DNA from: a bacterium
GTDB taxonomy: Bacteria > Sysuimicrobiota > Sysuimicrobiia > Sysuimicrobiales > Kaftiobacteriaceae
Length of the DNA: 17,377 nucleotides
Reading direction: 5' to 3'
Assembly: GCA_044868695.1 (NCBI GenBank)
Contig: JBIOWP010000046.1
Span: 1 to 17,377, forward strand
Part shown: piece by piece, positions 2,490 through 17,270 of the stretch
How the letters are laid out: every line of letters starts with the position of its first letter
How positions within the stretch are numbered: the first letter of the stretch is position 1
Program-made: the position numbers and the translations under genes
The notes under the pieces: model-generated
What the model saw: only the letters and a program-made list of their open reading frames with translations
What the model was told of the DNA's origin: nothing
Databases searched by the model: none

Positions 2490-3011
2490 GTGACGCACAC
2501 GATTTCGTTGACAGTCAACGGCACGACCCATCGTCATGAGGTCGAGCCGCGGCTGCTGCTGGTGTACTATCTCCGCGAAGTCCTGGGTCTGACCGGTACG
2601 CACATCGGCTGCGATACCACGAGCTGCGGGGCGTGCACCATTCTAATGAACGGCCAGGCGATCAAGTCGTGCACGGTGCTGGCGGTGCAGGCGGATGGAA
2701 CGGAGATCCTGACCGTGGAAGGGCTGGCAGAGGACGGGAAGCTCCACCCGATTCAGGAGGGATTCTGGGAGGAGCACGGCCTGCAGTGTGGGTTCTGCAC
2801 ACCCGGCATGATGCTGGCCGCGGTCCAGCTCCTGGCCCGCAGCCCCGCTCCCAGTGACGAGGAGATCCGCCACGGCCTGGACGGGAACCTCTGCCGGTGC
2901 ACCGGGTACCAGCACATCGTCAACTCAGTCAAATATGCGGCGCGCAAGCTGGCCGAGCAGCGCCAGCCCGCGATCCCCGTCCGCGGCCCGGTCCGCACGC
3001 CCGCCCGATGA
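2490..3011 (+). CDS. coxS: (2Fe-2S)-binding small subunit of a xanthine oxidase-family molybdoenzyme (CoxS/CutS-like)
   Basis: GCDTTSCGAC..C and QCGFCTPG...NLCRCTGY iron-sulfur motifs. GTG start preceded by GAGGTGAGAGG. Confidence 0.92.
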   Translation: MTHTISLTVNGTTHRHEVEPRLLLVYYLREVLGLTGTHIGCDTTSCGACTILMNGQAIKSCTVLAVQADGTEILTVEGLAEDGKLHPIQEGFWEEHGLQCGFCTPGMMLAAVQLLARSPAPSDEEIRHGLDGNLCRCTGYQHIVNSVKYAARKLAEQRQPAIPVRGPVRTPAR

Positions 3012-3871
3012 TTCCGGCCGCGTTCGAGTATCACCGGCCGGCGTCCGTGGCGGAGGCGCTGCAGTTGCTCGGCCGGCTGCCCGAGGCCAAGCTGCTTGCC
3101 GGCGGGCACAGCTTGCTGCCGATGATGAAGCTGCGCCTGGTCTCCCCGCCGCACGTGGTGGACCTCGGGCGCATCGACACGCTGCGGTTTGTCCGGGAGG
3201 ACGGCCGCACGGTCGTCCTCGGGGCCCTAACCACGCACTGGACCGTGGAGTCCTCGCCTGTGGTGCGCGCGCGTGTGCCGATGCTGGCGGAGTGCGCGGG
3301 CCGCATCGGCGACGTCCAGGTGCGCAACGCGGGCACCATCGGTGGGAGCCTCGCGCACGCCGATCCGGCGGCCGACTATCCAGCGGCCATGCTCGCGCTG
3401 GACGCGCAGATCGTCGCCGAAGGCCCGCGGGGCCGCCAGACGATCCCCGCCGACCGGTTCTTCACCGGCTTGTTCGCCACGGCGCTGGCTCCCGATCAGA
3501 TTCTTGTCGAGGTCCGGGTGCCGGTTCCCGCGGGGCGCGGCGGAGGCGCCTACCTGAAATTCCCGCATCCCGCCTCGGGATTTGCGGTGGTGGGCGTTGC
3601 CGCGCAGGTCACGTTGGATGGGCAGGGGCGGTGCGCCGCCGCGCGCGTCGGGATCACCGGCGTGGGGCCGGCCGCGTACCGGCCCGCCGCCGTCGAGAAA
3701 GGGCTGGTGGGCGCCGTCCTGGCTGAGCAGGCCGTGGCTGCCGCCGCGGCTCACGCCGCCGAGGGCGTGGACGTGAATGAGGACTTGTTCGCGTCCGCCG
3801 AGTACCGCGCGCACCTCGCCACCGTTTTCACGAAGCGGGCCGTCCTGGCCGCCGTCCAGCGCGCCACATGA
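3008..3871 (+). CDS. coxM: FAD-binding medium subunit of a xanthine oxidase-family molybdoenzyme (CoxM/CutM-like)
   Basis: Starts MIPAAFEYHRP at ATG 3008, an ATGA overlap with the coxS stop. Motifs LAGGHSLLPMMKLR, QVRNAGTIGGSLAHADPAADYP, ASAEYRAHL. Confidence 0.92.
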   Translation: MIPAAFEYHRPASVAEALQLLGRLPEAKLLAGGHSLLPMMKLRLVSPPHVVDLGRIDTLRFVREDGRTVVLGALTTHWTVESSPVVRARVPMLAECAGRIGDVQVRNAGTIGGSLAHADPAADYPAAMLALDAQIVAEGPRGRQTIPADRFFTGLFATALAPDQILVEVRVPVPAGRGGGAYLKFPHPASGFAVVGVAAQVTLDGQGRCAAARVGITGVGPAAYRPAAVEKGLVGAVLAEQAVAAAAAHAAEGVDVNEDLFASAEYRAHLATVFTKRAVLAAVQRAT

Positions 3872-15184: not shown

Positions 15185-15418
15185 TCAGGGGGTCACGACC
15201 ACGCAGGTGACCACCTTGCTCACGCCTTCGATCTTCGCCACGGCGGCGGTCACGGTCGGGAACCCCTTCGTTTCCTCCTGCTCCACCACGGCGATCACAT
15301 CGTAGTCGCCCATTGTGACGTGCGCGTCCACGACGCCGGGGACGCTGCGGACGTGGCGGGCCACCGCGGCAGGTGTGCTGCGATCCAGCGCGATCAGCAG
15401 GTACGCCACCTCGGCCAT
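15185..15418 (-). CDS. Stand-alone Lrp/AsnC ligand-binding (RAM) domain protein, 77 aa
   Basis: MAEVAYLLI...VRSVPGVVDAHVTMGDYDVIAVVE...IEGVSKVVTCVV is the typical AsnC C-terminal pattern, with no HTH. GAGG precedes the ATG on the minus strand. Confidence 0.85.
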   Translation of the reverse strand: MAEVAYLLIALDRSTPAAVARHVRSVPGVVDAHVTMGDYDVIAVVEQEETKGFPTVTAAVAKIEGVSKVVTCVVVTP

Positions 15419-15466: not shown

Positions 15467-15496
15467 TTGACACCCGCCGCCGGCCGCCTGTACGTT
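15467..15496 (+). promoter_or_regulatory. Putative sigma70 promoter driving the riboswitch leader
   Basis: TTGACA (15467-15472), 18 nt spacer, TACGTT (15491-15496), about 20 nt upstream of the aptamer P1. Confidence 0.65.
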
Positions 15497-15515: not shown

Positions 15516-15672
15516 CCCACAGTCTTGCGGGGCAGGGTGAGGGCCAGCTGGTCGGCTGGCCCAATTCCCGATCGGCGGTGACAGCCCGTGAGGCCCTGGT
15601 TCTGGGACAGGGCCGTGGCCCGGTGGAATTCCGGGGTCGACGGTACAGTCCGTATGAGGCGGAGACGGTGGG
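15516..15672 (+). ncRNA. FMN riboswitch (RFN element) class aptamer, atypical variant
   Basis: Conserved blocks in the correct order: GGGGCAGGGTGA..AATTCCCGATCGGCGGTGACAGCCCGTGA, P4 GGCCCTG/CAGGGCC, CCCGGTGGAATTCCGGG, CGACGGTACAGTCCGTATGAG. P1 CCCAC-AGTCTT / GAGAC-GGTGGG. Confidence 0.92.
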
Positions 15673-15695
15673 GGATCGGCGCCTGAGCGCCCCCA

Positions 15696-15726
15696 GGACG
15701 CCCGAGTTCGGGCGTCTCTTTCTTTT
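15696..15726 (+). terminator. Intrinsic terminator of the riboswitch expression platform
   Basis: GACGCCCG-AGTT-CGGGCGTC followed by TCTTTCTTTT, located between the aptamer and the start codon at 15757. Confidence 0.85.
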
Positions 15727-15756
15727 CGTGACATCGGTTCGAGGGAGGGAGATGCG

Positions 15757-16275
15757 ATGAGGTCACGCGAGCTGGCCGCCGCGGCAATCTTTGCTGCGGT
15801 GACGTTTGTGGTCACGCGGTACACAGTGATCCCGATTCCGGCGACCAAAGGGTACTTCAATCTGGGTGAAGTGGCCATCTACCTGGCCGCGATTGCCTTC
15901 GGCCCGGCTGTCGGCGCCGTTGCCGGGGCGCTGGGGTCGGGGCTTGCCGATGTGGCGGCAGGGGCGCCGCAGTTTGCGCTGTTCACGTTCCTCATCAAAG
16001 GCATCGAAGGGTACATCGTCGGACGGCTCGCCGGAGCCACCGCCGGCTCGCGGCTGCGCGCGACCATCGGGGGCGGCGCGTGGATGGTCGCCGGTTACTT
16101 CCTCGTCGAGGTGCTGTTCGCGCGTGTGCTGGGCATCGCACCCACCCCGGCGGCCGCGGTGACCGCGGCGCTGACGGAAGCGCCATTCAACATCGTCCAG
16201 GCGGCCTCCGGCGTGATCGTCGCCAATCTCGTGGGAACCCGTCTGCGCGATGCCGCCGGCCCGCGAGCGGCATAG
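15757..16275 (+). CDS. ECF transporter S component (vitamin-binding; DUF1393/ECF-ribofla_trS-like)
   Basis: AAAAIFAAV helix 1, IPIPATKGYFNLGE, FGP..GAVAGALGSGLAD, TFLIKGIEG, PFNIVQ. Hydrophobic throughout, 172 aa. RBS GGGAGG. Confidence 0.88.
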   Translation: MRSRELAAAAIFAAVTFVVTRYTVIPIPATKGYFNLGEVAIYLAAIAFGPAVGAVAGALGSGLADVAAGAPQFALFTFLIKGIEGYIVGRLAGATAGSRLRATIGGGAWMVAGYFLVEVLFARVLGIAPTPAAAVTAALTEAPFNIVQAASGVIVANLVGTRLRDAAGPRAA

Positions 16276-17270
16276 TGAAAGCCGGAAAAGTTCCTCCAGA
16301 ACTGCTGACCCGGCTGGTCTATCCACACCTCGGCCGGCGCCCCGACGTGCTGGTCCGCGCCCATGTCGGAGAAGACTGCGCGGTACTGGATTTCGGTGAA
16401 TGGGTGGCCGTGGCCACCTGCGATCCCATCACCGCCGCCGTCCGCCACCTGGGACGGCTCGCGGTCCACGTCGTCTGCAACGACCTAGCCACGAGCGGGG
16501 CGGAGCCGGTGGCGCTCCTGGTCACCCTGCTGCTGCGGGAGGGGACGACCCCCGAGGAACTGGAGAACATTGTGGTGGAGGCAGGGCGGACCGCGGCCGG
16601 CCTTGGGGCAGAGATTGTCGGTGGCCACACAGAGGTGACGCCCGGCCTCGACCACACGATTGCGGCGGTCACCGCCATTGGGAAAGCGCCCAAGGGCGCG
16701 GTGATCTCGGCTTCCGGGAGCAGGCCGCATGACGCGGTCATTCTCACCAAAGGCGCCGGGATTGAAGGGACGGCCATTCTTGCCTCAGACCTGGCGCCCC
16801 GGCTGGCTTCGGCGCTGGGAGATGCGGCGCTCGCCCGGGCGCAGGGGTTTGTGGACCGGCTCAGCGTGGTGCCGGAGGGCATGCTCGGCGCACGCAGCGG
16901 CGCGACTGCGATGCACGATGTGACCGAGGGGGGAGTCCTGGCCGGGGCCTGGGAGCTGGCTGAGGCGTCGGGGCTGGGCATTGTCCTGCGGGCGGACGAT
17001 GTGCCGGTCCTTCCGGAAACGACCGCGGTCTGCCACGAACTGGATCTGGATCCCCTCGCGCTGATCGGCAGCGGCGCGATGCTCATCTGCACGCCGGATC
17101 CGCGGCGCATGCTGCGGGCGCTGGCCGGCGGTGGGATTCCAGCCGCCGACGTCGGCGTCATCACGGAGCGAGACCGGGTGCTGCTGCGCCGGGGGACGGC
17201 CGCTCCCCTCGTCCCGCCGGCCAGGGACGAGATATATCGGGCGCTGGAGGCGGCGCACACGGCGGGCTGA
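16275..17270 (+). CDS. AIR synthase-related (PurM/HypE/ThiL/SelD superfamily) protein of unknown function
   Basis: GTG start overlaps the TAG of the S component (TAGTG). KAGKVP, GEDCAV, DPIT, NDLATSGAEP, IVGGHTE, AMHDVTEGG, LIGSGAML. Confidence 0.88.
   Translation: MKAGKVPPELLTRLVYPHLGRRPDVLVRAHVGEDCAVLDFGEWVAVATCDPITAAVRHLGRLAVHVVCNDLATSGAEPVALLVTLLLREGTTPEELENIVVEAGRTAAGLGAEIVGGHTEVTPGLDHTIAAVTAIGKAPKGAVISASGSRPHDAVILTKGAGIEGTAILASDLAPRLASALGDAALARAQGFVDRLSVVPEGMLGARSGATAMHDVTEGGVLAGAWELAEASGLGIVLRADDVPVLPETTAVCHELDLDPLALIGSGAMLICTPDPRRMLRALAGGGIPAADVGVITERDRVLLRRGTAAPLVPPARDEIYRALEAAHTAG

Follow-up and report, generated by a model that had tools for sequence, protein, structure and literature searches.

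Near the 3′ end of the window, the whole 17,377-nucleotide stretch of DNA analysed, an RNA leader precedes two overlapping genes on the forward strand. The leader has a likely sigma-70-type promoter, read from the sequence (15467-15496, with the -35 hexamer at 15467-15472 and the -10 hexamer at 15491-15496), and an FMN-scaffold aptamer variant (15516-15672) with helices P1-P6 and an extra hairpin in L2, hereafter subtype 1. These are followed by a predicted antiterminator strand (15689-15699) and an intrinsic terminator identified by a terminator scan (15696-15727), which consists of a 9-bp stem (15696-15717) and a U-rich tail and is conserved across variants. The first gene (15757-16275) encodes a PdxU2/HmpT-like ECF transporter S-component of 172 amino acids (PF07155, Pfam 121.7 bits). 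Its stop is overlapped by the start of the second gene (16275-17270), which encodes a PurM/HypE/ThiL-fold protein with the Pfam domains AIRS and AIRS_C. A small AsnC/Lrp ligand-binding-domain gene (15185-15418, reverse strand, 77 amino acids, PF01037) is divergent to the leader and is given as context only. A stand-alone AsnC domain gene is also divergent to the S-component gene in family f6 (L140), where the riboswitch is absent. Elsewhere in the window, positions 2490-3871 hold genes for small (2Fe-2S) and FAD subunits of the CO-dehydrogenase/xanthine-oxidase type; no large-subunit gene adjoins them, and a creatininase-family gene comes next.

The aptamer aligns end to end with the Rfam FMN riboswitch model RF00050 over 15519-15669 (58 bits, E 9.5e-13). 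This is below the gathering score of 66.2, and the whole window has no RF00050 match at gathering level. With our own covariance model, R1, the aptamer scores 148.9 bits as one of the training sequences of that model. The sequence-only reading had proposed an FMN-class riboswitch with substitutions in and around the ligand pocket at 15563-15660, a span that falls inside the aptamer but covers only part of the model match at 15516-15672. The five substitutions that it listed were all recovered (T15572, T15589, G15618, T15637 and T15653) and are, in what we take to be F. nucleatum numbering, U30, U46, G63, U82 and U98. This numbering agrees with the triples G12-(G93-C30), G11-(G84-C31) and G62-(C83-G32) in PMC12219259.

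The conserved FMN core of C46 and a GGAUG block containing G98 is absent from the window copy, which has U46 and U98 instead. U46 (15589; canonical C) converts the G33-C46 pair at the base of P3 to G-U, U98 (15653; canonical G) can pair with A85 and so lengthen P6, U82 (15637; canonical C) is pairable both with 41 and with 63, and G63 (15618; canonical A) covaries with 82 and 41. In the structure of the FMN aptamer, A85 presumably pairs with G98. The Watson-Crick pair that had been suggested in its place is A-U in 32/32 aligned variants, but it is invariant and thus gains no support from covariation. The excerpts of the structural papers on FMN riboswitches that were searched, including PMC12219259, make no mention of G98; G33, the partner of position 46, holds a phosphate-bridging Mg2+ through its N7 (PMC12219259). 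The window copy keeps G10-G11-G12 (15530-15532), the phosphate pocket in FMN riboswitches (PMC6298564), and the other contact bases G32 (15574), G62 (15617), G84 (15639), A48 (15591), A85 (15640) and A99 (15654), all on the forward strand.

We compared 116 distinct aptamers (64 variant, 51 canonical and one with C46/U98). Positions 46 and 98 go together, as U/U in 64, C/G in 51 and C/U in one, so that U46 accompanies U98 in 64 of 65 aptamers and occurs in none of the 51 canonical copies. The collection scans described below were selected on U98, and this linkage is therefore independently tested on the U46 side only. U30 apart, the substitutions are not common upstream of rib genes, the finding that the sequence-only reading had said would count against it: U46, U98 and U82 occur in 0/51 canonical copies of the same phylum (U82 is present in 55/64 variants). 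U30 occurs in 64/64 variant copies and also in 14/51 canonical copies from the phylum, and is therefore not diagnostic. Among parsed copies in the phylum, G63 is found in 50/54 variants vs 1/38 canonical aptamers.

G10, G11, G12, G32, G84, A48, A85 and A99 are invariant in both groups, as is G62 in all parsed copies; all of these except G12 are FMN-contact bases, and all are kept in the 64 subtype-1 aptamers (G62 in the 54 parsed). The six-helix fold P1-P6 is present in the variant. Across 32 aligned variants, the peripheral helices have two-sided changes in 19 of 37 pairs, with 98.6% of cells paired, and the helices that carry these changes are P1, the L2 hairpin and P4. The 41-82 pair is G-U in 25, G-C in 5 and A-U in 2 (n = 32), and 63-82 gives the same counts. 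A subgroup of subtype 1 (L101, L114, L116) has A41, U82, A63 and G61, a concerted three-base change that supports a 41-82-63 contact.

RF00050 is matched in 89 of the 94 genomes of the phylum Ca. Sysuimicrobiota. The loci read were 30 matches and 60 lower-scoring ones, with a few more added later, and mid-scoring canonical matches were mostly left out; the genomes are kin, so the counts are not independent events. Two unpublished genomes, G025 (variant matches) and G017 (canonical locus L032), are counted in the tallies, and none of the conclusions depends on either. Scored with a covariance model built from 32 variants, intact variants reach at least 131.9 bits at 39 places in 35 genomes, many of these being training sequences, and canonical copies at most 105.5 bits. 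The model finds the variant in families f1 and f2 only. A model-free non-G98 pattern is matched in 15/21 f1 genomes plus the window's genome and in 20/34 f2 genomes (one a chance match), and four matches ending in CCCG were taken as chance matches in coding sequence. No full variant occurs in 15/34 f2 genomes, and with both methods a non-G98 aptamer was found in 0/38 genomes of families f3-f7. A RibU-type gene in the window's genome is preceded by a separate canonical copy (95.6 bits), and seven other subtype-1 copies pass the Rfam FMN gathering score.

Beyond the phylum, a U98 P5-P6 pattern scan over one genome per GTDB species gave 37 matches, of which 36 belong to the lineage of this variant. 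The remaining match, a Lachnospiraceae U98 copy (L124), keeps C46 and precedes ribD, and was rejected as a sporadic change. In metagenomes the same pattern gave 49 matches; position 46 could be parsed in 45 of them and is U in every one. When position 98 is left free, the pattern matches 128/301 Bacillota genomes and so catches ordinary FMN riboswitches; among the Bacillota matches listed, G98 is present in 147/150, and the three others are one sporadic U98 and two copies of a second subtype.

Some aptamers in the phylum are interrupted or enlarged. An inverted-repeat hairpin of ~67 nt with near-identical ends is inserted in loops of canonical and variant f1 aptamers (loop L6 in L035, L040, L044, L091 and L240; loop L2 in L244). 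It resembles a small mobile repeat and hides these copies from simple patterns, and no copy was found in the window's genome. The canonical FMN riboswitches of f5 (L073-L090) have enlarged L2, L3 and L5 and fall below the Rfam cut-off; they keep the core and precede ribD/ribU. In L242:2290-2400 (G031:C4), a variant has its 5′ half deleted, so that the promoter runs into P5-P6, and the terminator is kept before a binding-protein gene.

All 53 canonical copies read precede a ribD or ribU (RibU-type) gene. Homologs with the same changes were gathered and their downstream genes tabulated, as the sequence-only reading had proposed, and a riboflavin synthesis or transport gene follows the variant in 0/40 genome loci and 0/49 metagenome loci. 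The 40 distinct genome loci comprise 16 with ECF and AIRS genes, 7 with pdxS, 15 with a binding protein gene and 2 cut at a contig edge; the metagenome loci comprise 28 with ECF and AIRS genes, 14 with pdxS, 5 with the binding protein and 2 that are uninformative, one of which starts like the S-component and then diverges. Wherever the contig reaches, pdxS under the variant is followed by pdxT, and PdxS and PdxT pass the NCBIfam cut-offs. One of the 14 metagenome pdxS loci (L181:650-1400) has a variant, then a pdxS remnant of 24 codons and then a gene for an APC-type permease; here pdxS has been lost and the RNA remains intact.

Within f2, genomes G001-G008, G026-G028, G030 and G033 lack a pdxS match, and there the variant precedes the binding protein gene. 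In G010, G015, G019 and G024 it precedes pdxS, and G029 has both arrangements. There are exceptions: in the seven f2 loci read, no variant RNA controls the AIRS genes, and pdxS of G011 has neither variant RNA nor PdxR within its short contig. Near variant operons lie thiT, thiamine pyrophosphokinase-like, tenA and thiD-type genes. The thiT gene downstream of variant operons has its own TPP riboswitch, and no thi gene directly follows a variant in any locus read; for these reasons, thiamine regulation by the variant was rejected.

The only PDB sequence match of the window S-component is 4HZU chain S (E 8.7e-15), the pyridoxamine-binding HmpT/PdxU2, which was first named for hydroxymethylpyrimidine (PMC4860826). 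Aligned with 4HZU, the HmpT pocket residues E41 and Y120 correspond to E38 and Y114 of the window protein, N140 and Q143 match N145 and Q148 by position in the family alignment, and His84 and Gln87 are replaced by K81 and E84, so that two of the six pocket residues differ. The only characterised prokaryotic B6 transporters are PdxU and PdxU2 (both PF07155) and P5PA (PF13531) (PMC9997740), and both families occur under variant RNA. The PF13531 member is an AfuA/P5PA-like ABC substrate-binding protein whose top PDB matches, AfuA, a Vibrio homologue and P5PA, have equal E-values. Membership of P5PA has been defined by >65% identity and the ring residues Y103/H203 (PMC8427247). The binding protein was rejected as a P5PA member, being far below 65% identity and not keeping Y103/H203 in the alignment; the S-G-S/T phosphate motif region is kept.

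The PurM-fold protein resembles ThiL among others, scores below all NCBIfam cut-offs and matches no curated family; its gene occurs in 83/94 genomes of the phylum. Neither a pdxS match nor a PF08543 kinase match occurs in the window's genome (95% complete), which should therefore depend on B6 uptake. Across the phylum, PF08543 matches are confined to a single high-scoring type per genome, which we take to be ThiD-like from its score and surroundings; this makes the PurM-fold protein a weakly supported candidate for a B6 salvage kinase. Alternative B6 kinases and transporters are still to be found (PMC9997740). Among sampled Bacillota genomes, 93/301 have the PurM-fold gene, as do 0/9 of those positive for TIGR00687 (PdxK), none of the nine being over the cut-off; this is a weak anti-correlation. 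A PF07155 S-component gene lies within 1.5 kb in 11 of 30 Bacillota PurM-fold loci (L201-L230), and none of the 30 has pdxS or pdxR. AlphaFold, run on the PurM-fold sequence by itself, gave a model with a pLDDT of 37.8, which was set aside.

Sister families have a protein regulator at the same genes. PLP is the ligand of PdxR, a regulator of the MocR family, and is also named in the NCBIfam PdxR model (NF052282, cut-off 320). The four f5 loci read have the order ECF-AIRS-pdxS-pdxT, without the variant RNA, beside a divergent MocR gene. By coordinates, a PdxR homologue is divergent beside the AIRS gene in 12/12 f5 genomes, and AIRS is directly before pdxS in 11/12. The regulators tested, two from f5 and one each from f4 and f6, score 461, 431, 332 and 382 bits, and all four pass the cut-off. 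Upstream of the f5 block lies the Gfo/Idh/MocA gene also found upstream of the window riboswitch (checked for L130). Given that families f3-f7 are without the RNA and that PdxR stands beside the same genes, gene order indicates that the variant RNA is located where relatives place a PLP-sensing protein. Between pdxR and the operon in L130-L133 there are short repeats with GTGGC/GCCAC cores, possibly PdxR operator sites.

A second subtype occurs in a Bacillota class. All 210 genomes of the class were searched with a pattern, which gave 36 places in 34 genomes; every place was read, and 35 are FMN-like and one (L294) was dropped as a chance match. Downstream of the 35 are a PF07155 S-component gene (25), pdxS (8) and a class V aminotransferase gene (1), and one locus is cut. 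One of these S-components, searched again, has 4HZU as its sole PDB relative, and the best family of the aminotransferase is pyridoxamine-pyruvate transaminase, at 285 bits vs a cut-off of 600. The position table covers 33/35 loci (L273 was not matched and L299 was merged with L297) and gives a signature of A98 (33/33), C47 (33/33), U46 (25/33) and U99 (21/33), with A99 consequently lost in 21/33. The P4 loop is short and conserved, and A63 and C82 are as in FMN riboswitches. The Rfam FMN cut-off is passed by 8/10 subtype-2 loci tested. In the Bacillota sample, two A98 matches are directly before pdxST, as are weak matches in two more genomes, and in a fifth genome it is a PdxR-like gene, not the subtype-2 RNA, that stands before pdxS. 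Other RF00050 copies in five genomes of that set are canonical, and 11 of the 12 read precede ribD/ribU, the remaining one having no reference match. Subtypes 1 and 2 share few diagnostic bases and could be sensing different molecules.

The antiterminator strand of the window leader can form 11 pairs with 15522-15533, the 5′ P1 strand and J1/2 (-19.5 kcal/mol), in a duplex that takes up the terminator's first four bases. Similar pairing (-10.2 to -22.0 kcal/mol) is available in 53/54 leaders, that is, in all those with a parsed terminator. Because the antiterminator pairs exclude P1, a P1 stabilised by ligand would allow termination; the conserved terminator and antiterminator are consistent with an OFF switch, and OFF logic fits end-product control of B6 synthesis and uptake. 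The sequence-only reading had called both promoter and terminator intact. The terminator is real, but a promoter scanner found none, and yet a similar hexamer pair (TTG[AC]C...TANNNT) is present in 39/54 homologous leaders. Constrained folding gives -102.6 kcal/mol for the antiterminator vs -106.4 kcal/mol for P1 plus terminator and -109.0 kcal/mol unconstrained, and the probability of the antiterminator in a truncated transcript is 0.02. Equilibrium folding thus prefers the terminator without ligand, and switching would need to be under kinetic control. Kinetic switching has been reported for FMN riboswitches. MFE folding of the whole leader showed no signal (z -0.78) and did not reproduce the aptamer.

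What does the variant sense? The earlier proposal of altered specificity is well supported: the changes are conserved, are hardly ever seen elsewhere and go with another set of genes. The flavin-type ligands suggested with it (riboflavin, a precursor or a breakdown product) are not supported, since no flavin gene follows any variant, the phosphate guanines are kept and the genes point to B6. We consider it highly probable, from sequence and gene context, that the RNA is a riboswitch for a B6 vitamer, most likely a phosphorylated form, built on the FMN aptamer fold. The grounds are that canonical copies precede ribD/ribU in 53/53 cases and variants precede B6 genes; that the characterised prokaryotic B6 transporters belong to PF07155 and PF13531, the two transporter families under the RNA; that sister families use PdxR for the same genes; that subtype 2 also changes position 98 and precedes B6 genes; that the window's genome has a canonical ribU copy and should depend on B6 uptake; and that the neighbouring thiT has its own TPP riboswitch. 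The intact guanine pocket would argue for a phosphorylated ligand. We judge the chance that this ligand is PLP itself to be a little better than even, roughly two thirds of the probability given to B6 as a whole, with PMP or PNP as the alternatives. All three fit; PLP is made by PdxST and acts as effector for PdxR.

Guanines 10, 11, 32, 62 and 84 would hold the phosphate of the ligand through Mg2+, as for FMN, and the changes at 46 and 98, together with 63/82, may reshape the ring slot for a single pyridine ring. Binding would stabilise P1 and free 15689-15699 from the antiterminator, so that the terminator forms. High PLP would in this way shut off the transporter and salvage enzyme in the window, or pdxST in other genomes. 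With somewhat over even confidence we also hold the broader picture, in which RF00050 hides a class for PLP, with two subtypes in two phyla that possibly arose twice from the FMN scaffold, and in which the regulon points to the PurM-fold protein as an unrecognised B6 kinase and to the ABC protein as a new PLP-binding protein.

Several observations count against the B6 reading. PLP is much smaller than FMN, and subtype 1 retains A48, A85, A99 and all phosphate guanines. The retention of all listed FMN contacts, with several variants passing the Rfam FMN cut-off, would suit an RNA that is still an FMN sensor, coupling B6 supply to flavin status, in which the substitutions only tune affinity; a cross-vitamin idea of this kind was raised in passing for Thermaerobacter pdxST (PMC4418817). 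We think this improbable, however, given the near invariance of G98 in FMN riboswitches (147/150 among the Bacillota matches listed), the perfect sorting of the changes by gene context within the same genomes, the U that replaces the flavin-reading A99 in 21/33 copies of subtype 2, and the use of PLP-sensing PdxR for the same genes in sister families. Also against B6 are the tie of the binding protein with AfuA and residues K81/E84 of the S-component, as well as the B6 genes outside RNA control (G011 pdxS and the f2 AIRS genes) and the equilibrium folding.

The binding protein is as close to the sugar-phosphate protein AfuA as to P5PA, HmpT was originally named for hydroxymethylpyrimidine, the PurM-fold gene resembles ThiL among others, and thiT, thiamine pyrophosphokinase-like, tenA and thiD-type genes are nearby, all of which would suit a ligand that is not a B6 vitamer but another phosphorylated molecule linked to B6 or thiamine-pyrimidine metabolism, such as HMP-P, HMP-PP or a PdxS substrate (a pentose or triose phosphate). 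The chance of this is slim: thiamine genes carry TPP riboswitches of their own, no variant is directly before a thi gene in the loci read, and an OFF terminator ahead of pdxST agrees with feedback by the end product and not with sensing of a substrate. The FMN variants already described bind riboflavin, lumiflavin and lumichrome (PMC6298564), but they lose the phosphate guanines that are kept here, and a flavin relative (riboflavin, lumichrome or a precursor) as ligand is very improbable. The same applies to a decayed FMN riboswitch before unrelated genes, which the sub-threshold Rfam score of the window copy and the one half-deleted copy might suggest; the core is invariant over 64 sequences while the peripheral helices covary, and neither idea accords with the absence of flavin genes after any variant.

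Like the FMN riboswitch RF00050 (the F. nucleatum impX aptamer, PDB 3F2Q; the B. subtilis ribD leader), the variant has the six-helix junction, the T-loop sequences, G10/G11/G12/G32/G62/G84, A48/A85/A99 and a terminator-antiterminator logic that acts via the 5′ P1 strand. It differs in having U46, U98, G63, U82, A102 and G104 and in preceding B6 genes, never ribD/ribU, in genomes where it usually coexists with canonical copies. The variants described by Atilho, Perkins and Breaker in 2019 (PMC6298564) are also rare RNAs within RF00050 with another gene association and presumably another ligand. However, those have G-to-A changes in the phosphate pocket, whereas here the pocket is intact and 46/98 change instead; they occur in Clostridium/Atopobium before COG3601 or EmrB/NorM efflux genes, and their subtype 2 is an ON switch. 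The G-to-A changes at ribityl/phosphate contacts are absent from the variant aptamers here, COG3601 or EmrB/NorM genes are not downstream of the variant loci, and the S-component is a 4HZU-like PF07155 protein. As positions, genes and hosts differ, we rejected an assignment to the published Clostridium-type FMN variants, and the available excerpts of PMC6298564 do not mention pyridoxal.

In 2015 an FMN riboswitch was noted before yaaDE (pdxST) of Thermaerobacter marianensis and left unexplained (PMC4418817). This too is an RF00050 member before a PLP synthase operon, but it is a single case that was treated as a normal FMN riboswitch, without sequence analysis; it is probably an example of subtype 2. 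Table 1 of PMC4418817 also lists an unexplained FMN riboswitch before a carbohydrate kinase gene in Clostridium ljungdahlii, possibly a B6 kinase under a variant. PdxR shares the pdxST/pdxU targets and the expected logic, with PLP turning supply off, but is a protein sensor acting on DNA and in this phylum occupies the families without the RNA. Reuse of a scaffold for a new ligand is seen in the pairs guanidine-I to ppGpp/PRPP and guanine to 2′-dG (cited in PMC6298564), in which few core changes switch ligand and regulon. The scaffolds are different, and we found none reported for a B6 vitamer.

Reviews of 2022-2023 (PMC10043782, PMC9971707, PMC11207198) count PLP among the near-universal coenzymes without a validated riboswitch and debate whether evolution accounts for the lack of RNA sensing. 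Judged by titles and the starts of abstracts, the open literature searched describes no PLP or B6 riboswitch class. If the B6 reading is true, the variant would provide a riboswitch for a ligand that reviews name as lacking one, represent reuse of the FMN fold for an unrelated cofactor and offer a genetically encoded B6 sensor. RF00050-based annotations would need correcting, as many copies pass the FMN cut-off. The 150-nt RNA, for which the genome's own canonical FMN riboswitch can serve as control, makes the question of PLP sensing testable, and the regulon would nominate genes for known holes in B6 salvage.
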